Shown here in pieces: positions 2,560 to 24,740 of a stretch of 64,000 nt of DNA; position 1 is the first letter of the stretch, and the number at the start of each line of letters is the position of its first letter. A program made the position numbers and the translations under genes. Below the pieces are notes generated by a model. It saw only the letters and a program-made list of their open reading frames with translations. It made no database searches and was not told where the DNA came from. Where the stretch lies: the IMG/VR virus record IMGVR_UViG_3300013296_000001, positions 4,211 through 68,210 of that record. One strand, 5' to 3'. This stretch comes from a virus.

Positions 2560-2909
2560 TTCTTGTCTCCACTATCTGCCTTGTCGGTAATCCCCACGTC
2601 GTCACGGTAAACATCAAACACCGACTTTGCGTCATCTCTACTAAAACTCGACCCTTTGGTATGGTCAATCTTCATACGAGACGTGCCAAGTCTCCACACA
2701 GCGTACTCCTCGTCGCTCTCGCACAGAATCAAATTCAGGTTGCCGAACCGGACCGGGCGCTTTTCCCCCGCTTGCTGAACTTCCATTTTCTTGTCAGCAA
2801 GCAATCTTAATCTCGATGCAGTCTCGGTGTCTACTCTTATTACTAGGTCTACGTCACTGCTAGGCTTTGGGGTGCCGTATACTCGACTCCCTGTTAGGAA
2901 TGCGAACAT
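2556..2909 (-). CDS. Minimal nucleotidyltransferase (Pol-beta superfamily)
   Basis: FLTGSRVYG...SDVDL = GS-x-DxD motif. Confidence 0.75.
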   Translation of the reverse strand: MFAFLTGSRVYGTPKPSSDVDLVIRVDTETASRLRLLADKKMEVQQAGEKRPVRFGNLNLILCESDEEYAVWRLGTSRMKIDHTKGSSFSRDDAKSVFDVYRDDVGITDKADSGDKK

Positions 2910-2921
2910 AGTTGTAGTCCG

Positions 2922-3059
2922 TTATGGTTTGATTCGTCCGTTCATTACACAAGGTTGGCACGATCCGCCCTTGCTGTTCTTACCCGTCCCACCACATGCC
3001 TTGCAGCACTTACACACCTTCTGTCGGCATTGTGGGCAAAGATGAACTGGTGTAGGCAT
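2922..3059 (-). CDS. Small Cys-rich protein, DnaJ-type zinc finger-like (45 aa)
   Basis: Hand translation MPTPVHLCPQCRQKVCKCCKACGGTGKNSKGGSCQPCVMNGRIKP; contains CxxCxGxG; below the ORF-track cutoff. Confidence 0.6.
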   Translation of the reverse strand: MPTPVHLCPQCRQKVCKCCKACGGTGKNSKGGSCQPCVMNGRIKP

Positions 3060-3104
3060 GATACACCTTGCGGAAATTTTGATCAAAATTCTAACACTGT
3101 AGAC

Positions 3105-3150
3105 GAAAAGAGGGTGAGATAACCCACTGGAGATAAGTTATCCCACCCTC
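3105..3150 (-). terminator. Intrinsic terminator after thyX
   Basis: 14-bp stem GAGGGTGGGATAAC/GTTATCTCACCCTC followed by TTTT on the minus strand. Confidence 0.65.
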
Positions 3151-3173
3151 CTACCTTTGACCTATCGGCAGGA

Positions 3174-3944
3174 CTATACCACCCCCTTGCCTGATGGCGT
3201 ACTAGGATTGCGTCCTGCAACGTACAGCTTCCATGTTCTCGGGAATTTGGATTCAAGGATTACACCAATAGCATCCGCGAACTGTTGGATTTCCCACATG
3301 GCGCCAGGATCGGCTCTCAGTGTTATAAAGGCTAGCCAGTTCCGTAGGTTGGCATTTGCTCGCATCTTGGAGTACCGTCCTACTGGCAGTTCTATCCGAG
3401 CCAGTTCCTTCGGCACTCCCCTACCTAGCCATTTCTGGTAGAACTCCTCTTGCCGTTCGTACATAAACTGCAACTCTCGGATAAACTCTTCGGCATAGTC
3501 GTCGGTCAAGTCTTCGGCGCCTTTGACTGTTCCCGCTTGCTTGTTCTTCGTACTCGTCAGGAAGCATCTTGCCTTAGTTGGGACGTAGTTTAGGTCCGGC
3601 AACGGAGCATAACGGGCGGACATTTCGTTGTAACTTTGTGTCCTATGACGGTGCCATTCTCTGAAGATGAAGATAGGTGCTTGCACTTCGATAATCAGTC
3701 CAGCGAACTCGAAAGGCGTTGCGTGGGGCGGCTTGTTACTGTACAAGAACCTCAATAACCGTTCGTCCTCTTCCCATCCGCGGAAGCTGCCTTGCGTGGA
3801 CTGTCGAGCTGTCTCTATGATCCCGCACTCGTAGTCCTGTAACTCACTTAGGTTGGAACCGTTCGGGTCTAGTCCGGCGTCCCCGTGACCGTAAGCTTCG
3901 ATGAACCGCACGTACCCGTGGTCTAGCACCTTGATCGCATCCAT
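3174..3944 (-). CDS. thyX: Flavin-dependent thymidylate synthase
   Basis: REWHRHRTQSYNEMSARY signature, HATPFEF, ELAR. Start reassigned to ATG 3944 because the track's TTG lies inside the palindrome. Confidence 0.95.
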   Translation of the reverse strand: MDAIKVLDHGYVRFIEAYGHGDAGLDPNGSNLSELQDYECGIIETARQSTQGSFRGWEEDERLLRFLYSNKPPHATPFEFAGLIIEVQAPIFIFREWHRHRTQSYNEMSARYAPLPDLNYVPTKARCFLTSTKNKQAGTVKGAEDLTDDYAEEFIRELQFMYERQEEFYQKWLGRGVPKELARIELPVGRYSKMRANANLRNWLAFITLRADPGAMWEIQQFADAIGVILESKFPRTWKLYVAGRNPSTPSGKGVV

Positions 3945-4017: not shown

Positions 4018-5292
4018 TCACTCAGGCATCGGCGTCAATGCACTGATCGACACGTTATAAATTCGGTTGTCGGTCAGATTCTTGATATTCACCTTACCTT
4101 CTTGATCCTCCGTCCCAACCTTAATGATCTGCCCTTGCACCTGCTTCTTCGTCTTCGGGTCAGTGAAGAGGAACACGTCATTCACTGCCGGCGGTTGTGG
4201 TTCGTCTGACACTTCCTCTACTTCGTCATTCGTTGTGTGCTTTGACTCATCGGCGTTATGCTCGCGCTGCCGAATCTCCTCTACCACTGCCGGCCAACCT
4301 CCGTCGGTGTTCGCTATCTCATCATCCGTGATGCCCGCTTCGTTGGCCGCACGAGTCAACTTGTCTTGGAAATCTTCGTTTGTGTCCGCCTCTGCCGCCA
4401 TTTCTTCCAACGTCGGTTCCTTCTTTGGTGCTGCCTTCGGAGCCGGCTTACCGCCCGTTGTCGGCTTGGTCTGACCGTTCTTCGCCGGTGCCGGAGTTGT
4501 TGTCGGCTTGTTCTGTGCGGACTTGGTTGTCGCTTTCGGCTTGTTCGCACTACCGAACCGGGTGGACTTAGGCGCCTCTTCGACTGGTGGCGATTCGGTG
4601 TCGTTCGTCATCTCCTCTGGCTCCGTCGCTACTTCCTCCCCTTCAGCAGTTGTTACGTCTGCCGTGTCGTCGTGCGGTTCCTCTGGTGGTGTGTCGTCCT
4701 GCACCATCTGAGCCGGCACGTCGGGGGGTGTAAAGTCGATGGCTTGTTCCCAGATTTGGTTTAGTAGCGGTTCCTTGCCAGCGTACTTACCTTGTTTCTG
4801 AGGCTCGCCCTTCCACGTCCTGAACCGGAAATGGATACCAGCTTTGGCGATCTGGGCACAGATGTCTTCCACGTTCTCAAACGTCACGTCTGCCATACTC
4901 ACACCGAGTCGGCCGAGCAACTGCACCACCCAATTCCAGTGCTCTTGAAGTGTCCGGTTGCCCTCTGATCGTGTCGGGGTGTCATACAGTGGGCGGGTGA
5001 CAGAGGTACGCATCCCCCGCGTGAAATACTTGTTGCCAGACTTGTCCACGAACGTCTCGGGTTCGACGACAACACCCGACGCATATAACATCATCTTGCC
5101 CTTATTCGCTCCCTCTTTCTTGATCTCTGTGAACCGAAGTTCCTTCAGTTCCGCAATGCCGTTCATCCCCGCCGGCAGATCACCACCACCCGCGACCGGC
5201 TTGATTTCCTGCGTCTTGACCTTCTCGTGAACCGGCGCCAGAACCTTACCCAGCTTGCGAAACAGCAGACCGGTCGATTGTGCCGCAGCCAT
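4018..5292 (-). CDS. Putative single-stranded DNA-binding protein with long acidic, Pro/Lys-rich tail
   Basis: GGGDLPAG beta-rich N-terminal domain typical of phage SSB-like proteins; sits next to an AAA recombinase-type gene. Confidence 0.5.
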   Translation of the reverse strand: MAAAQSTGLLFRKLGKVLAPVHEKVKTQEIKPVAGGGDLPAGMNGIAELKELRFTEIKKEGANKGKMMLYASGVVVEPETFVDKSGNKYFTRGMRTSVTRPLYDTPTRSEGNRTLQEHWNWVVQLLGRLGVSMADVTFENVEDICAQIAKAGIHFRFRTWKGEPQKQGKYAGKEPLLNQIWEQAIDFTPPDVPAQMVQDDTPPEEPHDDTADVTTAEGEEVATEPEEMTNDTESPPVEEAPKSTRFGSANKPKATTKSAQNKPTTTPAPAKNGQTKPTTGGKPAPKAAPKKEPTLEEMAAEADTNEDFQDKLTRAANEAGITDDEIANTDGGWPAVVEEIRQREHNADESKHTTNDEVEEVSDEPQPPAVNDVFLFTDPKTKKQVQGQIIKVGTEDQEGKVNIKNLTDNRIYNVSISALTPMPE

Positions 5293-5329
5293 TGCATACC
5301 CCTTAGACGAGTGATACGGAGGTTAGAGA

Positions 5330-5377
5330 AACCGTCTTCCCCACTGCCTTATTATTATAACAACAAGGAAGACGGTT
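5330..5377 (-). promoter_or_regulatory. Putative extended -10 promoter (TGnTATAAT) bracketed by an 11-bp inverted repeat
   Basis: CTTATTATTATAACAACAAG at 5348-5367; AACCGTCTTCC at 5330-5340 and GGAAGACGGTT at 5367-5377. Confidence 0.6.
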
Positions 5378-5425
5378 CAGGACACGCACGCACTAGACGC
5401 ACACTAGAATTTTGATCAAAATTCT

Positions 5426-5833
5426 TTACACTTTCGACGGGTCGGCGTAGTCACCGTAAGCAGACCGCCACGCCTCACTATTCACGTCCACGGCACCCGT
5501 GATCTTGTCTTCGGTACAGCAGACGTAGACCCATCTGGAGTGATTGAAGAGGTACTTGAGAATGCGTACCTCTGGGTGGGCAGTAACAATGTCCCCGACT
5601 TGAACGCCCGACTTGCACAAGGGACCAACTGACAGTACCTCGAACACCGCCGTCTCGTAATTGTCTTGAGTCCCTTCCGGCAGCATCAGTCCGGCCTTCG
5701 TCATGTTGACTTTGCGAGCCTCATTGAACCACATCACCACGAAGTTGCCGTAAGCCTTCAACACTGGTGGCGGCTTTGGCTTGACCTCCGATTGATTGTT
5801 GGCCAGAATGTGTGCGTTGTTCAGTCCGTTCAT
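5426..5833 (-). CDS. groES: GroES/Cpn10-like co-chaperonin
   Basis: LKAYGNFVV...TKAGLMLPE...EVLSVGP...VQVGDIV; GGAGG RBS before ATG 5833. Confidence 0.7.
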   Translation of the reverse strand: MNGLNNAHILANNQSEVKPKPPPVLKAYGNFVVMWFNEARKVNMTKAGLMLPEGTQDNYETAVFEVLSVGPLCKSGVQVGDIVTAHPEVRILKYLFNHSRWVYVCCTEDKITGAVDVNSEAWRSAYGDYADPSKV

Positions 5834-7042: not shown

Positions 7043-7491
7043 TTCAGTTCCTCGAAGAGTGTTTCCTGCCGAGTTAGTCCGACTGTAGAACCTTCAACTA
7101 GGTAAGCGTCAAGGTCTGTTGCTCCCCCCTCAGTTAATGGCGAGTATACGCCGAATGGCATCTGCCAGTGTCCAGAATCTCTATCCTCGAAAATGTCATA
7201 CTTTGGGTCTTCCATTGCAAACTGAGCACATTCGTACCATTTACACAACTGTTCTAGCAGTGGGTCAAGTGTCCTCTTGCGAAACAGTGCTATATTCTCT
7301 GGAGAAAAGGCAGTCTCCCATCTGGCAAAGAAATCCGCCGGATTCTCCCTTACGATACCCGCTAACCGCTGTTGAAACTGCTGTGGAGTTTCCTTCTTAC
7401 CCTGATACTGCGCGGGGCGTTTGATGACGTTGTAACGGACTCCTCGAATCGGATGAGCGCCTAGAATTTTGATCAAAGTTTTTTCATCCAT
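7039..7491 (-). CDS. PD-(D/E)XK (Cas4-like) exonuclease, C-terminal fragment
   Basis: IRGVRYNVIKRP continues the nuclease fold; own ATG at 7491 inside the GIY-YIG gene end. Confidence 0.6.
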   Translation of the reverse strand: MDEKTLIKILGAHPIRGVRYNVIKRPAQYQGKKETPQQFQQRLAGIVRENPADFFARWETAFSPENIALFRKRTLDPLLEQLCKWYECAQFAMEDPKYDIFEDRDSGHWQMPFGVYSPLTEGGATDLDAYLVEGSTVGLTRQETLFEELK

Positions 7492-8165
7492 TTTGCAACC
7501 CTCTTTTTGGCTAATGCAGCTTTTACTGCCTCTGAGATTTTGGCACAATGTTCCGGGGTTTTTGGCCTACCTCTTCCGGCTAACGACATCTTTAACCTAG
7601 TCTCTGCGGACGCTTTTTTACCTTTATTAGCCGGCTCTCTTCCTAGAAACGACCTTAGAATTCCTTCAGATATTTTGGCTTTACTCTCTTCTGAGTGTTT
7701 CCATCCTTGCCGGTTTTGCCATAGGTTTGCCTTATGCTCTTCTGACTTAGGCTTGCCCTTGAGTGCGTTGCTAATCTTTTTCTTTATCCAATCCGCCATT
7801 ACAACACCACGTTTAACCTCTGACATTTTCTTTTTAGTTTCTTCTGTGTGCCTGAACCCGAGACAGTTACCAGCCGTAGGGCTACGGTTATATCCATTCT
7901 CAAATTTATAAGGCTTCAGTGTGTCTAACCAGTGTTGCTCTCTAAGTAAACATTCACTAGGATCGCATTGTTCTGGGATGGTTATTACGAATCCTAGTGG
8001 CCCGTACTTATTCCAAGAGTTTTGTAAGTATGTAATTGGGTGGTATCCTCCATTTAATGCGCGTAAATGGTCATTGATGCGCCGTTCTATGTCACAACTA
8101 CTACCTACATAAACCTTCCCGTTGTAAACGTTTTTGAAGATGTAGACTCCACTTTTCGGTTTCAA
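7473..8165 (-). CDS. GIY-YIG homing endonuclease with NUMOD3 repeats
   Basis: SGVYIFKNVYNGKVYVGSS; HTEETKKKMS and HSEESKAKIS repeats; AT-rich. Confidence 0.92.
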   Translation of the reverse strand: MKPKSGVYIFKNVYNGKVYVGSSCDIERRINDHLRALNGGYHPITYLQNSWNKYGPLGFVITIPEQCDPSECLLREQHWLDTLKPYKFENGYNRSPTAGNCLGFRHTEETKKKMSEVKRGVVMADWIKKKISNALKGKPKSEEHKANLWQNRQGWKHSEESKAKISEGILRSFLGREPANKGKKASAETRLKMSLAGRGRPKTPEHCAKISEAVKAALAKKRVAKWMKKL

Positions 8166-8911
8166 GTGTTACCTCCTTTTGATATTTGGCATAGTGCTAC
8201 TAAATAGAGGAGCATTTGTAAGTCCCCGGTCAACTGCCGACTGATGGCTAACCCCTCTATCCGGCTTTTCGTCTTGTGGTCCCCTATCCAGATGCCCGAA
8301 CTTGTAGCGTCTTTCACCAACACAACCTCATCCCACTTGCCACGGAGCCGCACTGTTCGGCCGCTTGGCAGTGTGTACGGCACGTTGAACACATGCTCTT
8401 GCAGTAGGGGAATTACCTTGCGGGAATTTTGATCAAAATTCTGTGTCCAATACTCGACGTAGATCGGGAACATCGTCCGACAGATGCCGTACCAGTTGTT
8501 AATCGCATCTCTGTCGAAGGGATACTGTTTACTTAACCCGTTCATCCCGTAGACGTAATCCTTTAAAGCAATTTCCCACGCTGACTGATCTGTTCCGGTT
8601 ATAGGACGCAATTGCCCGTCCATACTACATTGCTTCTGTGCTAGTGCCTCTTCACAGATGTGCCACATATTGCCGAATTCCATCCGTGCATTGAACGACG
8701 GTGCCGGTGCCCACCCTTCGAGATACTGCACTCGAAATCGCTCTCGACAGACGATGAATCGTGAGAGCATCGAGAACGTAATACCGCCGTTCTCCTCGTT
8801 CGACTCCGGCCCTTTCCATAGTGGCGGACGCTTGACGAACTGGTTCTTAATTCCCATCCCCTTTAACGTCTCTGAGACCGAGGGCTTTCTTGCCTTCATT
8901 GGTGTACTCAC
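8162..8911 (-). CDS. PD-(D/E)XK (Cas4-like) exonuclease, N-terminal fragment
   Basis: TFSMLSRFIVCRERF...GNMWH...LRGKWDEV...IGDHKTK...LQMLLY. Confidence 0.8.
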   Translation of the reverse strand: MSTPMKARKPSVSETLKGMGIKNQFVKRPPLWKGPESNEENGGITFSMLSRFIVCRERFRVQYLEGWAPAPSFNARMEFGNMWHICEEALAQKQCSMDGQLRPITGTDQSAWEIALKDYVYGMNGLSKQYPFDRDAINNWYGICRTMFPIYVEYWTQNFDQNSRKVIPLLQEHVFNVPYTLPSGRTVRLRGKWDEVVLVKDATSSGIWIGDHKTKSRIEGLAISRQLTGDLQMLLYLVALCQISKGGNT

Positions 8912-14948: not shown

Positions 14949-16892
14949 ATGGCGAAGACGACAACCGCTCCTAAGCCGGCTACCCCGAGCAAGCCCGCTC
15001 CGAAGACTCCGGCCCCGACTCCTAAGCCGACGACGCCAAAGGGGAGCAATGGGAAGGCCAAGCCGGCGACGGAACCCGTGGAAGAGGTTGAAGAGGTTAC
15101 GGAAGTGACCGAGGGGACTGCGGACGACGTGAACGACGCTGCGGAGCCGGAACCGACGGAACTGCCTGATCCGATCGACCGGACGGAAATCAAGTACCCG
15201 AAGATTACCGTTATCAACAAGACGGCGGACGGTGAAGGGCCGTTGACCCCAGATGAGGTTAAAGAAATCGTCGGGTACTGTACCGATCCGATCACGGCGA
15301 AGGTCAACGGGTTCAGCGAGAAGGAACCGCTTGACACTCTGCCGGACGGAACAAAGTTCTGGTTCTTGTACAACACGAAGAACCGTCCGTACTACCCCGC
15401 CATTGCCCGTAGTTACGCGCAGTCGATCCTTACCGGCAAGTGGGAAGCGAATGGCGAATCGGCTGTCATCGGTAAGACCGCTGAGTGTCTGTCGATTCAA
15501 CACCGAGCCGGGGGGCTGCTGATCGCTGAAGCCGAGCGGGCTGCTAACCCTGAAACGTGGGAACACTTGTGGGGCGAAGGGCCGGTGACTATGCCGACAA
15601 TTCTGGTGTTCGGGGTCGAAGAGACGGACCGTGTAGTGAACACGATGGACACCGGCAAGGGCCGGACCGGTGCCGATATGCTGTTCCGCACGGAAATCAT
15701 GCTGCAAGCGTTTCCGAACAAGCAGACTCGGCGTGTTGCCGGGAACATCGTGACCAACGCCGTGAAGATGCTTTGGGATCGGATGGGAGTCAAGCAACAC
15801 AGCTTTACGCCTCAACTCAACCAAGCGGAGTTGCACGACTTCCTTATCCGTCACCCGAAGATTGTGGAAGCGGCGGCTCACATCCTGGAGGAAGACACTT
15901 ATGAGGGTGAGAAGAAGCGCGGGCGGGTTTCTAGTACAATCCTACCCCCTGGCTACGCTGCCGCCGTCCTGTTCCTGATGGGCGTGTCTGATACCGATGG
16001 GGACGAGTACAACCACGTTGGAGACATCGACAACTATAAGAAAACTGTGCCCACTCAAGACGGGATGGATTTGGGTAAGTGGGACAAGGCCGCTAAGTTC
16101 TGGAGTCAGTTGGTGGATCAGAATAACACCAACTTGTCCGGTGTGCGGCAAGCGTTCCTCTTGCTGCAAGATAAGTTCATGGGCCGTGGTCTGCCCGAAG
16201 GTATGGAACCGCTGACGGACGATTCCGGTGCGGTGATTGAGGCTGAGGGGTGCCACCCGTCGATTGACGAAAAGTTGATTGTCTTAGCGCGTGCCTGGAA
16301 TCTCTACAAGAAGGGCAAGCCGGTCAAGGCCGACGATTGCCTACCGGAAGTGGATAGCGTCAAGTTCGATAAGAACCGTCGTCGGAAGATCGTCGGTGAG
16401 TTGCCGAACTTTGGTGGTGTGGACGTGCCGAAGGTGGGCAAGATGTCCGAGACTCCCGACGATCCCGACAACACGGAAGAGGTTGAGGAAGGCACTGAGC
16501 AAGTTCAGCGGACCCCGCAGGAAGAAATCAACTTCATGCGGTTGCAGTTCGGTCTGGACGATAATGATGTGGCCCTCTTCAAGATGGGTGGCAGTGACCT
16601 GTACCGTCTGTGGAACCCGAATTCCCGTGACAAGGAACTCGTCAAGGCACTCGGATTCAACTGGAACAAGCCCGGGGAAGAGGGTGCGTTTTCTGGAATG
16701 CACAAGTACGAATTCGACCAATCGAAGCTCGATGCCGTGGTAAGCAAGGCAGTGGCGGCCGGTCGGAAGGTCCACTTGATTGAGACGTTTGGCAAGGACA
16801 AGCCGCCGCAACATACTGCCTTGACGGGTGCTCCGAGCAAGCCGGCTGCTGGTGGCAACGGTGCCAAGCCAAAGGTGGCTCCGAAGAAGTAA
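14949..16892 (+). CDS. DGQHR/ParB-Srx-superfamily protein with Lys/Pro/Ala-rich tails
   Basis: NRPY...SYAQSILTGKWEANGESAVIG...LSIQHR...ILVFGV...TMDTGKGRT matches the phage ParB-like pattern NR...Y..DM..G.W..NGE.I...LlDGQHRL...tmDtG..Rt. Confidence 0.7.
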   Translation: MAKTTTAPKPATPSKPAPKTPAPTPKPTTPKGSNGKAKPATEPVEEVEEVTEVTEGTADDVNDAAEPEPTELPDPIDRTEIKYPKITVINKTADGEGPLTPDEVKEIVGYCTDPITAKVNGFSEKEPLDTLPDGTKFWFLYNTKNRPYYPAIARSYAQSILTGKWEANGESAVIGKTAECLSIQHRAGGLLIAEAERAANPETWEHLWGEGPVTMPTILVFGVEETDRVVNTMDTGKGRTGADMLFRTEIMLQAFPNKQTRRVAGNIVTNAVKMLWDRMGVKQHSFTPQLNQAELHDFLIRHPKIVEAAAHILEEDTYEGEKKRGRVSSTILPPGYAAAVLFLMGVSDTDGDEYNHVGDIDNYKKTVPTQDGMDLGKWDKAAKFWSQLVDQNNTNLSGVRQAFLLLQDKFMGRGLPEGMEPLTDDSGAVIEAEGCHPSIDEKLIVLARAWNLYKKGKPVKADDCLPEVDSVKFDKNRRRKIVGELPNFGGVDVPKVGKMSETPDDPDNTEEVEEGTEQVQRTPQEEINFMRLQFGLDDNDVALFKMGGSDLYRLWNPNSRDKELVKALGFNWNKPGEEGAFSGMHKYEFDQSKLDAVVSKAVAAGRKVHLIETFGKDKPPQHTALTGAPSKPAAGGNGAKPKVAPKK

Positions 16893-16915
16893 CAGGACTG
16901 CCAATTTGGCAACCG

Positions 16916-16948
16916 TACCCTATCCTAATCCGGTGGGGTATTTTTATT
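16916..16948 (+). terminator. Intrinsic terminator
   Basis: TACCCTATC/GGTGGGGTA stem plus TTTTTATT. Confidence 0.7.
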
Positions 16949-17050
16949 GCCAGACAGTAGTTACGGTAATTTTGATCAAAATTCTTTGCCTTCCCTGCCG
17001 AAGTAGAGTATAGATACTGGTAGATCGGACACCGCACAGGAGAACCAGAG

Positions 17051-17263
17051 ATGCCCGCTCAAACCACGATGGAAAGCAAGCTGACCGCAGTTGCCTCTAA
17101 GGTGTTTGAGAACGGGATGATCTTCGTTTACGAGTCCGGCGGGGTGTACTGGTTAGCGACTCGGGTTGAAGACAAGTTCAGGACGATGCGATCTATCGGG
17201 TTCGACGGGGCAGGGTATCGGGAGATGGTCAAGGAAATCAAGCGGGTTGCTGCGGAATACTGA
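17051..17263 (+). CDS. Early hypothetical protein
   Basis: AGGAG RBS; terminator follows. Confidence 0.65.
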   Translation: MPAQTTMESKLTAVASKVFENGMIFVYESGGVYWLATRVEDKFRTMRSIGFDGAGYREMVKEIKRVAAEY

Positions 17264-17272
17264 CCGACACCT

Positions 17273-17304
17273 AACCCCGGGATAACCTCTCGGGGTTTCT
17301 CTTT
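17273..17304 (+). terminator. Intrinsic terminator (AACCCCGG family)
   Basis: AACCCCGGGA/TCTCGGGGTT stem plus TCTCTTT. Confidence 0.75.
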
Positions 17305-17314
17305 GGGGGAACCT

Positions 17315-17545
17315 ATGAAAGTCCGATGGAGACGTAGGAACACGGCATCGGTAGGAACGTTCTACGAAGTCGATAACTCGGCTGGGCAAGTCATTATCCA
17401 CATACACCGTAAGGATCACTGCGGGTATTGGTACGTGTTCGTCGGGGAGGACATGGACGAAGCAGATGGGGACCGGTTTAATTTCCTATGGGAAGCGAAA
17501 CGGTATGCAGAGAAAGAGATTAAGTCGGGACGGGTGACTATCTAG
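17315..17545 (+). CDS. Early hypothetical protein
   Basis: GGGGGA RBS before ATG 17315. Confidence 0.6.
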   Translation: MKVRWRRRNTASVGTFYEVDNSAGQVIIHIHRKDHCGYWYVFVGEDMDEADGDRFNFLWEAKRYAEKEIKSGRVTI

Positions 17546-17641
17546 AAATTTTGATCAAAATTCTTGCAACATTCCGCCCCGAGTGACGTATACCTTACCA
17601 GAGGGATGCAAACCGTGTCCCCAACCTGCAAGGAGAGAGCA

Positions 17642-17908
17642 ATGGGAAGCTTCCAGATCATCGGTCGGATCGTGGTGGGGCAAGAGGACTACGTGATCGA
17701 CTCAGGCGACGGAACGACGATCTACCCGAGAGGGGCAGTGCGGGTGTTCGGTTACAAGGTCGGGTGTCTGTCGAACGGCACCCCCCGTGTCTACTTGTTC
17801 GACTCGTTGCAGGACGCTATGCAGTGGATCGACACGCAAGAGGAAGCCGTATCCGCTGAACGTGGATTCGATGCGTGGGTGGACTCCTACCGTGAACCGA
17901 CTGAGTAG
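17642..17908 (+). CDS. Early hypothetical protein
   Basis: AGGAG RBS before ATG 17642. Confidence 0.65.
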   Translation: MGSFQIIGRIVVGQEDYVIDSGDGTTIYPRGAVRVFGYKVGCLSNGTPRVYLFDSLQDAMQWIDTQEEAVSAERGFDAWVDSYREPTE

Positions 17909-17919
17909 CCCAGCAATTG

Positions 17920-17953
17920 AACCCCGGCACTAATCCTGCCGGGGTTTCTTTTT
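17920..17953 (+). terminator. Intrinsic terminator (AACCCCGG family)
   Basis: AACCCCGGCA/TGCCGGGGTT stem plus TCTTTTT. Confidence 0.8.
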
Positions 17954-18073
17954 GCTATGGCGTGAACTACCTATCGATAATTTTGATCAAAATTTCGGAT
18001 TCCCTGCAACAAACCCTGCCGACTGTCGTATATATAGTTGTGTGGAACGGAAAACCCCTTCAGGAGTAGGACA

Positions 18074-18802
18074 ATGGCCGTTGCGAACACCACTCGGGTT
18101 GGTACGGGTTACTCCTCCGCGGATCAGGTGGTTGTCCCAGACTCCCTTAAGTTCGTCGGCCGGACCCTGAACCACTATTGGTACACCGAACGGGTTTCCT
18201 CCGATCACGCTTGGATCGACAGCGGCAACCGCGTTCGGGTTACCTACCTAGACGAAAACGAGATGCCCCGCTCGAAGTCGTTCTACACCGACGATAACGA
18301 TTATGTCTTCGAGAACGACGCCACACCCGAGATGATGGAACGTGCCCGGCGGGTTATCCAGGTAGTCAACGGGCTGCAAAGCGTCATCCACGGCTACCGT
18401 AACGAGGAACGGCAGAATAGGGAAGTTCGGCAGGGGGATACGGTCGAAGTGTACAAAGGGCGGAAGGCACCGAAGGGTCGGTACGAAATCGTAGCGATGG
18501 GTAACGGCAACTACGGACCGTACTACAATCTGCGGGATGCCTCCGGCAAGTGGTACAGCTACATCAGCGTTGACAACTGCCGCAAGGTGGATGTGGCCCC
18601 TGCGAACGTCGAAGCGTCCTGCCCCGATGAAGAGGCTTTCATTCGTGCCCTAATCGTCAAGCTTGATGATATGGCTACGATTGGTGCCTACGCTGACTGG
18701 CTGACCGAAAACGGGGAAGAGGATGGCGAAATCCTCTCTCAGTGGGTCAATGCTGGTTGCCCGCAGCTGCCGAGCATTGCTGACCTGGACCACAAGAGCT
18801 AA
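18074..18802 (+). CDS. Early protein with C-terminal TIGR02996-type domain
   Basis: DEEAFIRALIVKLDDMATIGAYADWLTENGE resembles the E.all.aI...PdDd..rlvYADWL.E.G consensus. Confidence 0.7.
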   Translation: MAVANTTRVGTGYSSADQVVVPDSLKFVGRTLNHYWYTERVSSDHAWIDSGNRVRVTYLDENEMPRSKSFYTDDNDYVFENDATPEMMERARRVIQVVNGLQSVIHGYRNEERQNREVRQGDTVEVYKGRKAPKGRYEIVAMGNGNYGPYYNLRDASGKWYSYISVDNCRKVDVAPANVEASCPDEEAFIRALIVKLDDMATIGAYADWLTENGEEDGEILSQWVNAGCPQLPSIADLDHKS

Positions 18803-18820
18803 ACCGATCGACAGCAAACC

Positions 18821-18845
18821 ACCCCGGCTAACCACCGGGGTTTTT
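18821..18845 (+). terminator. Intrinsic terminator at the convergence of the early and glyco operons
   Basis: ACCCCGG/CCGGGGT stem plus TTTT. Confidence 0.75.
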
Positions 18846-18848
18846 CGT

Positions 18849-19652
18849 TTACCCCTTCTCTCCCTCGAATTGGTCCCGTCCTTCCTTCCTGAGCCTCTGC
18901 CTCTTCTCCCAGATATTGCCGACCATCGCCGCCCGCTTGCCCGATTCTGGTGGCACTGTGCCGTCAGCGTAGGGGGTTGCTCGTCCGCACCAGTTGGCGC
19001 CAGCCGGTCCCATGTGCAGCACTTCAAACGGGGGGCGTACCTTTCTCTCCCGTGGCCACTTCGCCTGAAAGAAGCTATCTGCCCCTCCGGCCGTTTTCCA
19101 AGTAATGTCGTGCCACGGGGGCGGACCTAGAACGGGATCGCTGGCGTGGAATATCTGAGTGTACCCTGCCCACTCCGCAATATTCTTATGAATCGGGTAC
19201 TTGCTCCATTCCGACTCGGGTGGAATTTGATCAAAATTCTGTGGTACGGTGTGGTACATTCGTCTAAGTGGGGAGTACAACATTCCCGGCAAGAACGCAC
19301 ATCCGTTGATGACAAACTCGCAGATATTAGGTCGACCAGGAATGAATACCTCTAGATTTTTCGGCCACAATACATCAGCATCCATGACGCATAGCCACCC
19401 CTTACGTCCTATGCAGTCTAGCCCGAATTCCATCGCCGGCCACTTCGCAAACACGTCTCCCTTGCGAGCGTAGAACAAGTCCGTAACAATCACATCCGCA
19501 TTGTTCGCTTCGCAGATTGGCTTGACATTCGGGGCGTCAGCCGTGGATGTGATGACCGTTACTGTATCGAAGTGCGATCTATTCCAAGGTAACGACAATT
19601 TCAGGCAGTCCGTGTAGTCTACGGACACGAGCACGGCTCTAAGTCCCATCAC
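18849..19652 (-). CDS. Glycosyltransferase (GT-A fold)
   Basis: WLCVMDADV DXD motif; C-terminal FEVLHMG. Confidence 0.7.
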   Translation of the reverse strand: MMGLRAVLVSVDYTDCLKLSLPWNRSHFDTVTVITSTADAPNVKPICEANNADVIVTDLFYARKGDVFAKWPAMEFGLDCIGRKGWLCVMDADVLWPKNLEVFIPGRPNICEFVINGCAFLPGMLYSPLRRMYHTVPQNFDQIPPESEWSKYPIHKNIAEWAGYTQIFHASDPVLGPPPWHDITWKTAGGADSFFQAKWPRERKVRPPFEVLHMGPAGANWCGRATPYADGTVPPESGKRAAMVGNIWEKRQRLRKEGRDQFEGEKG

Positions 19653-20443
19653 TCACCCCCGTACAGACTGAGTTGCGGTTTCTTCGTGTGGTAAGCGTGC
19701 AATACCTCAGACCAAAACTTACCCATGATACGGCCCGTCTCCGACACCTTCTGAACGACTCTACCATCTGGCGGATTCCAATGGCCGCACACCCGACACA
19801 GGATCGTAGCCTGACCCAGCATGGCGTTCCATGTCACGTCTTTCAGCGACATCACCCCGATATCGTACCCTGCCACTCGTGCGATACTCGCCCCGGCTCC
19901 ATCGAGAAAGTACCCGTGTCGTGTCAAGCCGATGCCGCACCCACGAATAGCGAAGATACCGCACGGTGGCAGGATACCGACTTTCGGGTTACGGTCTACC
20001 GGCACTATCCGTGTGTTCGTGAACCAGTCCGGCGTAATACCCTTTGTCTTCGGCCCTTCTACGTGAACGTTCCATCCGGCCCGTGTGAGCCAGTCCTTCT
20101 CTCGTGCCCACTTCCCCCGACCGTTGCTCAGCACTTGGAGGAACACTTTCGGGAAGCGTGCTGTGTATCGTGCGATCTCGGCGGCAATCTCGTGTAACTG
20201 CGGGTGGAGTGTCGGCTCACCCCCCAGAATACGGATACGCTCCCATTCCCAATCCAACTCTAGTGACTCGTCTACGAATCGAGCGACTTGAGCGACTGTC
20301 ATATTCGGGGCGGTCGTTACGTCACTGAACCGGTCGCAGCCAAAGCAATCGAGATCGCAAATCGAATTTACTTCGATCTCTACATGTTTAAATCTTTCCC
20401 CTGGGTCTCTAGGGTAGAAGTCTGGTAGTGGCAGACTGATCAT
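19649..20443 (-). CDS. Radical SAM protein
   Basis: CDLDCFGC (CxxxCxxC), ILGGEPTLHP, VLSNG, C-terminal SPASM-like cysteines. Confidence 0.88.
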   Translation of the reverse strand: MISLPLPDFYPRDPGERFKHVEIEVNSICDLDCFGCDRFSDVTTAPNMTVAQVARFVDESLELDWEWERIRILGGEPTLHPQLHEIAAEIARYTARFPKVFLQVLSNGRGKWAREKDWLTRAGWNVHVEGPKTKGITPDWFTNTRIVPVDRNPKVGILPPCGIFAIRGCGIGLTRHGYFLDGAGASIARVAGYDIGVMSLKDVTWNAMLGQATILCRVCGHWNPPDGRVVQKVSETGRIMGKFWSEVLHAYHTKKPQLSLYGGE

Positions 20444-21084
20444 TTACGTCTCCTACTAACTGAATGCGTTCCAAGCTTTTTAGTTAATGACTCTTCTACG
20501 GACATACCTCGTGCCAACCTTCCAAATAATGTTACATACTTGATACCTAACTCTTCAGCCCACTCTATTGCTAACTGCTTTCTACCGTTAAAGGTTAGAA
20601 ATAGGTTGTTTCTTCTATTTCTTGCTTGTTCCTCTGCCGTAGCCCATCTCACATTTCCAGGCTCATAGTTACCATCATTATTCGGCCATCTATCAAGAGA
20701 ATAGAGAAGCGATGGTCTATATCCCATATCTCTTAAGAAAGTCTTGAATTCTGTCCACTGCGGAGCAACCGTAATACCTACTGATCCATACATCCAATAG
20801 AGTTTGTTAGTCGGGTTGTTACATCTAGCTAACATAGACCGCCAGCAAGTATACGTTGGGGTTCCATATTCGCCGTGTTTGATCTTCCATGCACTTTCTT
20901 TTATCAAACATCCACAACTCTTTACACCACCTTTAAGTAAACTTCCTGTGCTTGCCTTATGCGTACCTCCACATACACAGTCGCACAGCATAAGCCGATA
21001 CCCACCGGGGGCTACTCCTATGTCTTGTCTCACTGTTAGTCTGTGAAACTTATCTCCAGGCTTCACTTTTGGTTTAGCTGGCAT
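20440..21084 (-). CDS. HNH homing endonuclease
   Basis: RLTV...CDCVCG...KSCGC...WRSMLARC...SLDR..NNDGNYEPGNVRWAT; AT-rich. Confidence 0.9.
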   Translation of the reverse strand: MPAKPKVKPGDKFHRLTVRQDIGVAPGGYRLMLCDCVCGGTHKASTGSLLKGGVKSCGCLIKESAWKIKHGEYGTPTYTCWRSMLARCNNPTNKLYWMYGSVGITVAPQWTEFKTFLRDMGYRPSLLYSLDRWPNNDGNYEPGNVRWATAEEQARNRRNNLFLTFNGRKQLAIEWAEELGIKYVTLFGRLARGMSVEESLTKKLGTHSVSRRRK

Positions 21085-21175
21085 ACATACCTCGGTTTAC
21101 CTCTAGCTCTATATGTTTGAACCTCTCGCCAGGGTCAGATGGGTAGTCGGGCGGTAGTGTTATCAGTGGGACCAT
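21074..21175 (-). pseudogene. Stranded duplicate of the radical SAM 5' end (33 aa)
   Basis: Hand translation MVPLITLPPDYPSDPGERFKHIELEVNRGMYAS*, versus MISLPLPDFYPRDPGERFKHVEIEVNSICD at 20443. Confidence 0.85.
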
Positions 21176-21207
21176 ATATCTCTCGATGGGGAAATTTTGA
21201 TCAAAAT

Positions 21208-21963
21208 TTACGGTATTGGAATTACACCCACACCGCAGCTTCTACCGTACCAGTGTCTCAACCACGACTCGTGAGCCGTCTTACAGTCTATTCCCTTACT
21301 CTGTCTCTCTAATGCGGGGAGTACATCTGTCGATCCGTCAATAATGGTGTAACTGTCCTTATACTCTCTCCGCAACACGTTCCATGCCTCTTTCGGTCCG
21401 GGGAAGTCTGTGATATCGTGCAGAAAGATGACGCCACCGCTCCGCACCATCGGACGATAAGTATTGAAGTCCTCTAGAAACTTCGACTTGTCCCCGTCGA
21501 TGAACAGACAGTCGATACCACCGTAGTTGTCAGACACGACACGAACCATGTCTACAAACTCTCTCTGTCTACTATCTCTCCCCCATACGAATTGAATGTT
21601 AGGAAAGGCTCTCTCGAATAGCCGGCTGTACGGCGTTCCTCGAATCTCACATCCGATCACCAATTCAACTTTACCGACTGACCGACACCAGTGATACAGT
21701 CCACCCGACTTATCCGCCCCAATCTCCATGACGACTTTCGGACGCACAGCACTTCTCACACCTGCCGCGGCAAACATACGTACCATCTCGGCCGGACGCT
21801 GAAGAGGGAACATCAGCGGACTATTAATTACCGGTTGATAGACTGACAGTCCGTCTGGTAGACTCTTACACTCCTCTAGCACTCGTTCAATTTCCTCACA
21901 CATTCCAACGGGGAAGTCGGACTTATCTACGGTTCTCTGAATCATACTTGTCCTTTGTGCCAT
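21208..21963 (-). CDS. Class I SAM-dependent methyltransferase (Methyltransf_24-like)
   Basis: VMEIGADKSG...IDCLFIDGDK...GGVIFLHDI. Confidence 0.82.
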   Translation of the reverse strand: MAQRTSMIQRTVDKSDFPVGMCEEIERVLEECKSLPDGLSVYQPVINSPLMFPLQRPAEMVRMFAAAGVRSAVRPKVVMEIGADKSGGLYHWCRSVGKVELVIGCEIRGTPYSRLFERAFPNIQFVWGRDSRQREFVDMVRVVSDNYGGIDCLFIDGDKSKFLEDFNTYRPMVRSGGVIFLHDITDFPGPKEAWNVLRREYKDSYTIIDGSTDVLPALERQSKGIDCKTAHESWLRHWYGRSCGVGVIPIP

Positions 21964-21980
21964 AATTTTGATCAAAATTT

Positions 21981-22931
21981 CTACGCACCATTTTGAAGAT
22001 ATCTCACTACATTCCCTAAACGCTCTCCTAACTGAGATTCAACCGTCACCAACTCTACACGTCTACCCTTACGCTTCGGTTGGTATATCGACTGATGAGT
22101 TGCCGACACTTGCTCTACACCGTCTGCCGACTGTGATAGCTCTCCGTGTCCTCTCAATGGCACCCCACACGAATGACAAGCTTGACGCACTTGGTCCGTA
22201 AAAGAGTGCATTCCGAGTTGCCACCACTTCTGACCGTGGCCATTAACAAAATCGACTGGATAGCCTAAATCTGGGTAACTCGGATCGTGCTGGTATAACC
22301 CCGCAAAGCTCGCGGCTATCTCACAAAAAAATGCTCTGGCTTGTCCTCGAAACTGGATGATTCCGGCACTCCAACCCCTGTTGATATCACAGTTACTAAT
22401 CAGTTCCCACCGTCGCCCCTCATCAGCAATCACATCTTTCATGGCTACTAATACCGGAGCGTGCCGGCTATCTCTATCGTGGCCGAATGGCATTGATTCC
22501 GGCCAGTCGCGCTTAAATTCGGCGTAGGCTTCCTTGTCGAGATGGCAATTAAGATTGCTATAGCGGGGATTAAACGTATCCCTCATCAATTTACCTTTAC
22601 CTCTAGGACTATTACACCATAAACCACGTCGTTCAAAAGGGATGTACTTTTTCAGAATCTCGCAGTATTCCCCGAAGTACGTCGAGACTGCCGGATTCCC
22701 TCCCATAGTACCCACGACTCCAAAATAGTTTTGCAAACTGATAACTGATTTCTCGAAGTTATCAGGGGTCATAAACTCTATTTTGCCGGCTAGTTGAGAC
22801 GACTGGGTACAATTTGCGCAAGACTGGTCACACCCACGAGTCACTAGTATTTGAATTACACCAGCAAGCCATTTCGTCTCTCTCCGTTGTCCCGGACCAA
22901 TCATCTTTGAGAGACAAGTTTTTTCGTCCAT
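21981..22931 (-). CDS. Radical SAM protein
   Basis: VTRGCDQSCANC, TMGGNP, C-terminal CHSC. Confidence 0.85.
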   Translation of the reverse strand: MDEKTCLSKMIGPGQRRETKWLAGVIQILVTRGCDQSCANCTQSSQLAGKIEFMTPDNFEKSVISLQNYFGVVGTMGGNPAVSTYFGEYCEILKKYIPFERRGLWCNSPRGKGKLMRDTFNPRYSNLNCHLDKEAYAEFKRDWPESMPFGHDRDSRHAPVLVAMKDVIADEGRRWELISNCDINRGWSAGIIQFRGQARAFFCEIAASFAGLYQHDPSYPDLGYPVDFVNGHGQKWWQLGMHSFTDQVRQACHSCGVPLRGHGELSQSADGVEQVSATHQSIYQPKRKGRRVELVTVESQLGERLGNVVRYLQNGA

Positions 22932-23557
22932 TGTGATTTTCCTTTTACTGGTGTGGTTAAAGTCCGCTCTGCTGTCCAACCTCGGTCGAGTCTATACATT
23001 AACGTCATCGGGTGTATTCCAAGTTCTCTAGCCCAGAACGTAATACACTGAGTTCTTCCCTTATATGTGACGTTCCTGTTAGTCCGTCTATTAGTGTCTT
23101 GTTCTATCTTAGTAGCCCATCTGCAATTTGACGGCTCATAATCACCATCGTTATTCACCCTGTCTATGCTGTGTTTAGGCGACGGGCGTGGTCCCATATC
23201 CTTATAGAAATTCTCGAACTTCAACCATCTCTCACAAACTTTAATACCTCTACCGCCATAGTTATGATGCCCTTTCCCTTCTCTATTACTACATCTAGCA
23301 ATCATACAAGTCCAGATTCTATACTCTGGTGTTCCGTTTCTCGACATCCCGTGTGTAGTGTTAGCTTCTCTAGATAAACACCCACAACTAACAGTATTAC
23401 CAGACGCCAGATGTGACCCGACTACTGTTGTCAATTTTCCGCAGATACATCTACATTCCCATAAACGATTTCTAAAACGGCTTAGTCCAACGTACCGTAG
23501 TACAGTTAGCCTCCCGAATCTATCTTTGGCTTTCACAGGCGAAGTTTTATTAGCCAT
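22901..23557 (-). CDS. HNH homing endonuclease (paralogue of 20440-21084)
   Basis: RFGRLTV...CRCICG...SCGC...WTCMIARC...YGGRGIKVCERW...SIDRVNNDGDYEPSNCRWAT. Confidence 0.92.
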   Translation of the reverse strand: MANKTSPVKAKDRFGRLTVLRYVGLSRFRNRLWECRCICGKLTTVVGSHLASGNTVSCGCLSREANTTHGMSRNGTPEYRIWTCMIARCSNREGKGHHNYGGRGIKVCERWLKFENFYKDMGPRPSPKHSIDRVNNDGDYEPSNCRWATKIEQDTNRRTNRNVTYKGRTQCITFWARELGIHPMTLMYRLDRGWTAERTLTTPVKGKSQWTKKLVSQR

Positions 23558-23595
23558 TCCTTGTCTCCGCACTAGAATTTTGATCAAAACTTACA

Positions 23596-24117
23596 CTACT
23601 TCGTTGCTGCTAATGCCATGTCAAATCCCGTCGCAATCTGTGTGTATTGCTCCGATGTTATGTCCGTCCACGTCGCTCCGCTTGTCGGCAGCATGAGGTT
23701 ATTCGGTAGGTTACTGTGCCCTAGCCCTATCGCGTGACATATCTCGTGTGCGGCATCTCGAATTGTGAATGCCAACTGTTCCGGCGTATTCCCGAACCAC
23801 CGGCACAGTGCTAGTTTCTCGAATATGTCTACCCCCGGCATCAGGAATGAGGATTGAACTGCTGTACCGTCATACCCACCGGGCAAGTTCGGCAGGAACC
23901 GCAAGACACCGTACTTCCTCATAGACCCATTCGGGCGCTGTGTCGTTAGACAGAAGTTACCGGCCTTGAGTATCTTTAGCACCCCATTCATCAGGTCGCT
24001 AGCCTGCATGATTGTGATAGGATTCTCGAATAAACACACTACGTTAAACCCGCCTCCCCATCCTACACCCATTTGCGGCAGAGGTTCGTACACTCGGTTA
24101 GGGTCGATGTTCGCCAT
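23596..24117 (-). CDS. Zinc metallopeptidase (metzincin/matrixin-like)
   Basis: HEICHAIGLGH (HExxHxxGxxH) followed by Met-turn NLMLP. Confidence 0.85.
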   Translation of the reverse strand: MANIDPNRVYEPLPQMGVGWGGGFNVVCLFENPITIMQASDLMNGVLKILKAGNFCLTTQRPNGSMRKYGVLRFLPNLPGGYDGTAVQSSFLMPGVDIFEKLALCRWFGNTPEQLAFTIRDAAHEICHAIGLGHSNLPNNLMLPTSGATWTDITSEQYTQIATGFDMALAATK

Positions 24118-24167
24118 ACCGCACTTATACCTTTCATAAATTTTGATCAAAATTCTGCAATACTTCT

Positions 24168-24740
24168 CTAGTCATCTATTCTACCTAACAAAACTGCCTG
24201 ATGAGCATCCGTATGCTCTTGAAACTCCGACCACTTGACCCACTCACGTCTGACGAATCCCTCCCCCTCTCCAGACCATAGTTTCGATATTACCCACCCT
24301 TTGACACCCGCCGCCAGATGGAAGAATTCTTTCGGTGTGTACTCTCGGCAGTGGTAGCCGTTGGCCGCGTGGGACACGTTAAAATTGGGTGTCGTGAGTA
24401 ACACGTACTTCCGTGCGATGCGGCACATCTCATTCAAGAAATCCACGTCTTCTACCACATGCTCTAACACATCGAACGCTGTCACCGAATCGAACGACTG
24501 GTCACGGATCACCGTCAGATTGGCACAGATTTCAACCGGTAGACCAAATGCAACGTCCTGAGTCATACACAGCGGAATCCGGTTCTTCGACAGTGCTAAC
24601 CCTGCCCCCACGTCCAATACCGCCCCCAGATGCAACTCGGTTGCTAGTACATGCCACCCCCGCTGACAGTCTTCCCTTCCTTCAGTATCACTGTGGTACG
24701 TCACGTCTCGGAAGTGCGGCTTTGCAGGCTTACTTTGCAT
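24168..24740 (-). CDS. Class I SAM-dependent methyltransferase
   Basis: VLDVGAG...FDSVTAFDVLEHV...LLTTPN. Confidence 0.85.
   Translation of the reverse strand: MQSKPAKPHFRDVTYHSDTEGREDCQRGWHVLATELHLGAVLDVGAGLALSKNRIPLCMTQDVAFGLPVEICANLTVIRDQSFDSVTAFDVLEHVVEDVDFLNEMCRIARKYVLLTTPNFNVSHAANGYHCREYTPKEFFHLAAGVKGWVISKLWSGEGEGFVRREWVKWSEFQEHTDAHQAVLLGRIDD

Follow-up and report, generated by a model that had tools for sequence, protein, structure and literature searches.

Introduction

WHO elements at the yeast FBA1 gene exchange its 3' end for a resistant copy, and fragments stay behind (Coughlan et al. 2020, eLife, PMC7282813); the fragment provides a second homology arm (PMC7282813). In fungal mitochondria, mORF 'gene hybrids' have been described for atp6 of Allomyces macrogynus and for atp6, atp9, cox2 and nad3 of Glomus (PMC3630166). 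In phages, SegF, SegG and MobE are free-standing endonucleases of the T4 type, and one-sided illegitimate repair of double-strand breaks occurs in T4 intron homing (review PMC2988022). The nrdA gene of Aeromonas phage Aeh1 is split by mobE, giving 'genes in pieces' (cited in PMC2988022; PMC3045599). Here we analyse a 64,000-nucleotide stretch of viral DNA (the window), positions 4,211 to 68,210 of the IMG/VR record IMGVR_UViG_3300013296_000001, which is 75 kb long and has terminal repeats. The window contains an HNH-family endonuclease gene, HNH1, that lies between two versions of the 5' end of a radical SAM gene. With a probability of roughly three in four, we propose that codon 27 of the radical SAM gene marks the entry point of a free-standing homing-endonuclease cassette, which brought a replacement gene start with it. 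All genes under discussion are on the minus strand.

Read in this way, the locus resembles the WHO elements in several respects: the endonuclease would home into a coding gene without an intron or intein, the mobile unit would carry a diverged gene end, the old gene end survives as a fragment next to the endonuclease gene, and the outcome is a chimeric host gene. WHO elements replace a 3' end, whereas here it would be the 5' end including the start codon, making the locus a variant of that layout rather than a member of the group. The gene-end copy carried by WHO elements is resistant; the copy described here is a candidate for resistance. WHO proteins are intein-like LAGLIDADG/zinc-finger proteins of the yeast nucleus, whereas HNH1 is a predicted PacI-like HNH protein of a phage. 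Allele-specific cleavage has been shown for WHO6 and is a prediction for HNH1, and WHO loci contain clusters of repeated fragments where this one has two copies only.

The fungal mORFs share with the present locus an endonuclease open reading frame (ORF) and a foreign gene end inserted into a resident gene, with the native end displaced alongside, and the inserted and native ends differ strongly in DNA and little in protein. They bring C-terminal ends and LAGLIDADG or GIY-YIG enzymes, and their ORFs often form in-frame fusions with the host gene; in our locus the end is N-terminal, the enzyme is of the HNH type, and its separate ORF is coupled to the host gene through a stop/start overlap. Allomyces atp6, named as the closest precedent when this locus was first noticed, is indeed comparable, but the WHO elements are closer mechanistically (PMC7282813).

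Like HNH1, the phage endonucleases SegF, SegG and MobE are free-standing, lie between or beside phage genes, occur sporadically and are inherited with flanking donor sequence (PMC2988022), and T4-type homing gives illegitimate junctions where homology is missing on one flank. The endonuclease genes of T4-type phages sit between intact genes, with no gene-end duplicate described, whereas here the junction falls inside the target and leaves a 27-codon duplicate. Aeh1 likewise has a free-standing HNH gene within a phage coding region, no intron, and retained function; there the gene is split into two polypeptides that reassemble, whereas here a full-length gene would be restored through an imported start. 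Our search of the phage literature found intronless homing and an endonuclease-split gene described, and found no description of duplicated gene ends, 5' ends included. The published kin of the layout, WHO elements and fungal mORFs, replace 3' ends; the present locus would be a 5'-end counterpart in a phage.

Results

The two gene starts

The short ORF at 21175-21074 has 33 codons and encodes MVPLITLPPDYPSDPGERFKHIELEVN followed by RGMYAS and a stop. Its first 27 codons (21095..21175) are a stranded radical SAM 5' end; the similarity is lost directly after codon 27, AAC, and CGAGGT follows. This hexanucleotide holds the ribosome-binding site of HNH1, with GAGG 5 nt before the HNH1 ATG at 21084. 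The short ORF runs for six codons past the end of homology, and its TAA lies 8 nt within HNH1. The HNH1 gene itself (20440..21084) is free-standing and apparently intact, with 214 codons for amino acids, and its TGA stop shares bases with the ATG of the next gene (ATGA; AAATGATC). AGGAG is found inside the 3' end of HNH1, 6 nt before this working ATG. The radical SAM ORF that starts here (19649..20443, 264 aa; Pfam PF04055, 32.5 bits against a cut-off of 29.5) opens with MISLPLPDFYPRDPGERFKHVEIEVN, then SICDLDCFGC. We refer to its first 26 codons (20366..20443) as the working N-terminus; that they are a replacement is suggested by the sequence reading, by the G+C content at third codon positions (GC3) and by synonymous divergence.

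BLASTP of the 33-residue product of the short ORF against the 264-residue radical SAM protein aligns its first 27 codons with the first 26 of the radical SAM gene at 19/26 identical residues and E = 2e-11, a value at which the similarity is not a chance one. There are exactly two copies of the gene start in the genome. In a 17-codon ungapped block, the Nei-Gojobori proportions of synonymous (pS) and non-synonymous (pN) differences between the copies are 0.92 and 0.11, respectively; over the blocks compared, pS ranges from 0.78 to 0.92 and pN from 0.11 to 0.15. Across 21 codons there are approximately 10 synonymous and 8 non-synonymous changes at 13 and 50 sites, respectively (binomial p = 0.0013). 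Synonymous sites near saturation combined with conserved amino acids indicate that the copies diverged as working genes in separate genomes. The divergence predates the insertion, because a stranded fragment could not have kept its amino acids while its synonymous sites neared saturation, and the excess of synonymous change rules out a recent duplication inside this genome.

The original prediction had reported a short ORF, an HNH gene and a radical SAM gene with an ATGA overlap, all of which are present at the minus-strand coordinates given above. It had also described the two gene starts as synonymously recoded. The codon differences are as listed there, but their extent is that of ordinary orthologue divergence: the radical SAM gene and that of the closest relative found, L002, have a pS of 0.67 over the whole gene. 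Since the copies diverge no more than orthologues do, the recoding is no sign of design. By this measure it is orthologue-level divergence as usual in this phage group, and in itself no evidence for selection for resistance.

The same sequence was recovered independently, from another sample, as a 5.6-kb contig (L089; JGI 3300014745) that matches window positions 15649-21150 at 100% identity. This contig spans the junctions between the stranded copy, HNH1 and the radical SAM gene, which are therefore real and no assembly artefact.

The radical SAM protein has 163 homologues and contains every family-invariant residue. Its cysteine motif, CDLDCFGC, comprises residues 29-36 and is coded at 20336-20359, directly 3' of the insertion point. 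Matches to NCBIfam models (MoaA and others) are weak and below threshold. The public call of this gene (P0001, 217 aa) begins at Met48 of the ORF at 19649-20443 and lacks the Cys-x3-Cys-x2-Cys motif. The homologues P0072, P0073 and P0078 have likewise been called too short, and their genes are intact; we had considered P0073 and P0078 as disrupted genes and rejected this, as they are intact genes with mis-called or non-ATG starts. A scan for sigma-70 promoters and terminators gave nothing exceeding shuffled sequences.

The probable native gene start

L002 is a 28-kb contig whose radical SAM protein is 75% identical to that of the window. Its gene order is that of the window without either of the window's two HNH genes. 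The resident flank of our locus is a methyltransferase gene (21208..21975; Pfam PF13578, Methyltransf_24, 28 bits against a cut-off of 26.3), which anchors the synteny and is ~80% identical in amino acids to the gene directly before radical SAM in L002. In L002 the methyltransferase stop is followed by 15 nt and then by the ATG of an uninterrupted radical SAM gene. The stranded copy and the ATCGAGA preceding it align to this native gene start, and homology ends after codon 27. Relative to the uninterrupted gene, the HNH1 insert begins after codon 27, and sequence reading together with the L002 alignment places its left junction at 21074..21094. Among 82 homologues, the best N-terminal match of the stranded copy is the L002 protein, with 19 identities; the working copy has 16 identities to the same N-terminus.

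A palindrome, ATTTTGATCAAAAT, occurs 58 times in the window (at most one mismatch) against 0 expected, mostly just 5' of gene starts. One copy (21194..21207) lies just before the start of the stranded copy, and others lie before the methyltransferase gene (21965) and before HNH2 (23577), the second endonuclease gene of the window. Neither radical SAM body is preceded by one, and the palindrome is absent within both HNH genes. The copy at 21194..21207 probably belongs to the original gene-start signal. The L002 alignment, together with the presence of the palindrome before the stranded copy and not before the working start, suggests that the native gene-start signals stayed with the stranded copy.

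Base composition separates the same segments. HNH1 has a GC content of 0.42 and a GC3 of 0.35, compared with 0.53 for the window. GC3 is 0.38 in the working N-terminus (codons 1-26), 0.64 in the remainder of the radical SAM gene, 0.56 in the stranded copy and 0.54 in the methyltransferase gene. The working N-terminus is like HNH1 (Fisher p = 0.83) and unlike the rest of its own gene (p = 0.018). A maximum-likelihood change point in GC3 falls at radical SAM codon 34, with 2-lnL support for codons 19-37 and the start codon outside this interval; HNH-less orthologues have a much smaller N-terminal dip in GC3 or none. By composition, then, the working N-terminus looks cassette-like, and the stranded copy and the gene body look resident-like.

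Along the radical SAM gene, pS against L002 steps from 0.99 to 0.80 and then to 0.45-0.66, rising again at the 3' end; it is high to about codon 66. A short imported tract would fit both the GC3 change point and the higher pS over codons 1-66. In a mosaic test, the nearest neighbours of successive segments of the radical SAM protein, drawn from 96 homologues, did not clearly change from one part of the protein to another.

A search of Rfam over positions 19500-24200 gave no match at E <=1, group I and II intron models included, and of the 729 nt between the two gene-start copies only 10 are non-coding. Judging from these features, the radical SAM gene is probably whole without splicing.

The original prediction held that an element had entered the 5' end of the gene, bringing a replacement N-terminus and leaving a gene that needs no splicing. 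The empty L002 allele, the synonymous divergence and GC3 bear out the entry and the replacement, and the Rfam result and the scarcity of non-coding nucleotides agree with a gene that needs no splicing. It had also suggested turning to HNH-less alleles: L002 is one, its gene start aligned with the stranded copy, and when we looked for HNH-less relatives that carry both copies we saw none.

HNH1 and its candidate target

HNH1 belongs to phrog_374, annotated 'HNH endonuclease' (E = 9e-58), a family of >4,300 clusters; HNH2 is in the same family (E = 6.5e-67), and the two proteins are 44% identical. HNH1 retains all family-invariant residues, including the CxC...CGC cysteines. Two tyrosines (Y99 and Y140) are invariant across the family. 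The only near-invariant histidine is H70, located upstream of the HNH-like motif, and the histidine position of the motif itself (HSLDR) varies. PacI has a tyrosine in place of the catalytic histidine (PMC5714182).

The AlphaFold2 model of HNH1 has a predicted local distance difference test score (pLDDT) of 92.7. Its best fold match is PacI, a restriction enzyme of the HNH type (3m7k_A; Z 6.1, root-mean-square deviation 2.3, 76 residues within 70-160), a weak match below the level that is safe alone. Foldseek against the Protein Data Bank (PDB) gave no match at E <=0.001; I-HmuI came top with E 0.39 and a poor global fit. Pfam, NCBIfam and PDB sequence searches with both HNH proteins found no match. 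Given the modelled fold, HNH1 is likely to be a PacI-like His-Me finger enzyme. A nucleotide search of GenBank phages with a 3-kb region of the locus returned a single 78-nt HNH match to cyanophages and no relatives.

In two relatives, L001 (4985-5010) and L092 (2950-2975), whose orthologues are 55% identical to each other, a +1 nt insertion is found at the same spot of the radical SAM gene. The extra base directly follows the TTT (Phe) of Cys-x3-Cys-Phe-x-Cys, giving TTT T GGT and TTT C GCT, and ~230 intact codons follow downstream. For an 800-nt gene, the chance of two independent indels at one inter-nucleotide position is roughly 1 in 800. A tRNA-Phe could re-pair in the +1 frame at this site. 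The insertions may be scars of escape from an endonuclease, sites of programmed +1 frameshifting, or marks of recent pseudogenes. The +1 site is 7 codons 3' of the insertion point in the window, at the position of the GC3 change point. The 24 nt that code for the most conserved motif of the protein contain the +1 indels and the composition switch as well as the point where the stranded copy ends. As these features coincide there, the Cys-motif codons near the insertion point are the probable cleavage region, as far as the sequences can indicate.

Relatives and neighbouring genes

At least 4 phages have HNH genes at radical SAM 5' ends, and both paralogues are affected. An HNH gene stands directly before the orthologous radical SAM gene in L001 and L090, with overlapping stop and start codons and no stranded copy in either; it is missing from this position in L002, L003, L004, L006-L011 and L092. 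Directly before the paralogous radical SAM gene, an HNH gene is found in the window, in L003 and in L090. This sporadic presence, together with the frameshifted or truncated copies in L090, indicates that gain and decay of endonuclease genes at both radical SAM 5' ends are ongoing.

In the window, the gene order upstream of the methyltransferase gene begins with a metallopeptidase-like gene (24150-23596), followed by HNH2 (22901..23587) and the paralogous radical SAM gene (approximately 21981-22931). The last 10 codons of HNH2 overlap the start of the paralogue (ATG at 22931), and a second ATG overlaps the HNH2 stop (ATGA). There is no stranded copy at HNH2; the palindrome precedes HNH2, and none precedes the paralogous gene. 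We considered that this radical SAM gene had been replaced along with HNH2 and rejected the idea: its 48% identity to L002 stems from a truncated or frameshifted L002 gene. At the other end of the locus, the hybrid radical SAM gene (20443-19649) is followed in reading order by a 267-aa ORF.

The neighbourhood is rearranged in several relatives. In L090 (612-2960; Logan SRR15167844_9154), one HNH gene is frameshifted and the other is interrupted by a stop and lacks the C-terminal third. In the radical SAM gene of the same contig, a tandem duplication of 25 nt (GGCAGTGGGAACGTATTCGACTACTC twice over) changes the reading frame close to codon 70. In L002, a 207-aa ORF (4879-5502) between the radical SAM gene and the orthologue of the 267-aa ORF is weakly similar to HNH2 (24%, E 3e-6) and may be an endonuclease gene at a different site. 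In L001, a 94-kb relative, the same neighbourhood (2229-3176 and 7220-8809) includes a GIY-YIG-type ORF of 315 aa, and the orthologue of the 267-aa ORF matches in two pieces ~800 nt apart, which may reflect another insertion.

The three-part cassette was seen otherwise only in the same virus in a second sample (L089). A scan of metagenome contigs gave, among the matches listed, mostly distant relatives (<40% identity) and no further orthologous alleles, empty or occupied. What looks like a 3'-end version of the layout surrounds another HNH gene of the same family in L169 (IMGVR_UViG_3300038412_000121, 410-1335). There, the last 26 codons of a small HNH-motif gene ending ...MLPFNLWVMQRYLKKGTRFSPTEVIEHHLT (410-499) precede the endonuclease gene (577-1218), which is followed by a terminator-like hairpin and then by a diverged copy of this gene end in a 29-codon ORF, MPHPVWIAQRYGKEGYQFSSVEIIHHEQE (1246-1335).

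Discussion

The cassette that we propose would consist of a ribosome-binding site, HNH1 and the first ~26 codons of another phage's radical SAM gene. Its point of insertion would directly precede the coding sequence of the Cys-x3-Cys-x2-Cys iron-sulfur motif. The 27 resident codons would have been pushed upstream and stranded at the native start behind the palindrome, and the resident gene body would now be read from the imported start codon. The event may be pictured in a mixed infection, with a donor phage that carried HNH1 directly before its radical SAM gene. The donor's endonuclease would have cut the recipient gene in or beside the Cys-motif codons, and the 3' side of the break would have been repaired through homology of the gene body. 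On the 5' side, the repair may have been by illegitimate joining just upstream of the HNH1 ribosome-binding site (one-sided homing) or by pairing with a stranded fragment that the donor already carried, which would mirror the WHO mechanism; a single genome does not distinguish these two options. Either would result in a neutral insertion in which the endonuclease gene separates the coding body of the target gene from that gene's signals. Probably one transcript covers the stranded ORF, HNH1 and the hybrid gene, and their translation is coupled. If so, the endonuclease would use the expression signals of its target gene, and the target would be functional without RNA or protein splicing. About one position in four differs between the imported and the resident codons, and this difference could protect the hybrid allele from HNH1.

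Several observations weigh against this reconstruction. The three-part structure was found in no other genome among 95 HNH-family and 101 radical SAM loci, in a lineage that is thinly sampled, and a search for a donor found none, the nearest relative of HNH1 being 53% identical. HNH1 has a tyrosine (YSLDR) where most relatives have a histidine (HSLDR), at a position that varies in the family; its modelled fold resembles known nucleases weakly (Z 6.1; Foldseek E 0.39 to I-HmuI), and its target is deduced from position alone. Both N-termini share the same best match at the protein level. The nearest empty allele is only 75% identical in amino acids, and at synonymous sites the stranded copy is not measurably closer to it than the working copy is. 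The GC3 contrast is based on 26 codons (p = 0.018), and gene starts often have a lower GC3, as in L004 (0.50 against 0.79). Splicing, finally, is excluded by arguments drawn from sequence only.

The same arrangement could be read in the opposite sense, with the working N-terminus native and a cassette of a foreign radical SAM 5' piece plus HNH1 inserted before the native start. HNH genes do stand directly before an undisturbed radical SAM start in L001, in L090 and, as HNH2, in the window, which makes this the usual site, and at the DNA level both N-termini are about equally distant from L002. However, the native position, the upstream ATCGAGA and the palindrome all go with the fragment, which is also slightly nearer to the L002 protein (19 against 16 identities). 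In GC3, the working N-terminus resembles the cassette and the fragment resembles the resident genes, and the change-point support at codons 19-37 excludes codon 1. We consider this reversal unlikely. A low probability also attaches to ordinary phage mosaicism, that is, illegitimate recombination of two related phages within the radical SAM 5' end with the HNH gene as a passenger, possibly inactive, and not the cause. The endonuclease activity of HNH1 is a prediction only, HNH-family genes decay in relatives (they are frameshifted or truncated in L090), and several relatives have a rearranged neighbourhood, all of which speaks for mosaicism. Such recombination sits less well with a junction placed exactly at the HNH1 ribosome-binding site and in the codons before the gene's most conserved motif, a type of site favoured by homing endonucleases. 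It also sits less well with the repeated presence of HNH genes before the two radical SAM paralogues (at least 4 phages), with two independent indels in the same 24-nt stretch, and with L169, where duplicated gene ends lie on either side of a second HNH gene of the family.

An intron is a common setting for a phage HNH gene, and the fragment upstream is an unbroken ORF that has start signals of its own. One might thus suppose that a self-splicing intron (or another recoding event) removes the HNH gene and joins the exon starting at 21175 to the radical SAM body, with the downstream N-terminus as part of the intron. This is very improbable: there is no Rfam match at E <=1, the 729 nt between the copies are coding save for 10, an ATG and an AGGAG belong to the downstream copy, which purifying selection has maintained, and L001 and L090, with an HNH gene before radical SAM, have no upstream exon. 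We attach even less credence to a tandem duplication of the gene start in this genome followed by divergence and a later HNH insertion between the copies. At the protein level each copy matches the other best (score 101; L002 scores 99), in keeping with such a history, but they differ in composition, and an unselected copy could not have conserved its amino acids at near-saturated synonymous divergence.

If an endonuclease cassette did bring the working gene start, the three-part unit might itself be a self-contained phage homing element and a mirror of the yeast WHO elements. The fragment would then be the upstream homology arm, the imported codons would confer immunity, the Cys-motif DNA would be the target and the +1 insertions in L001 and L092 would be escape scars. 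We put this forward tentatively, and on the present evidence we are inclined to doubt it.

The favoured insertion would add to introns and inteins a third means by which a homing endonuclease can reside in a phage gene and leave it working: the element supplies a spare gene start and takes over the expression signals of its target gene. It also provides a testable guess at the cleavage site of a member of the very large and uncharacterised PacI-like HNH family (>4,300 clusters). If the arrangement is general, it would account for short orphan ORFs whose sequence imitates the beginning of the gene after next, and gene callers would mis-start the host gene, as in the public call at Met48, which misses the iron-sulfur motif. 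The 5' ends of phage genes would then evolve as chimeras.

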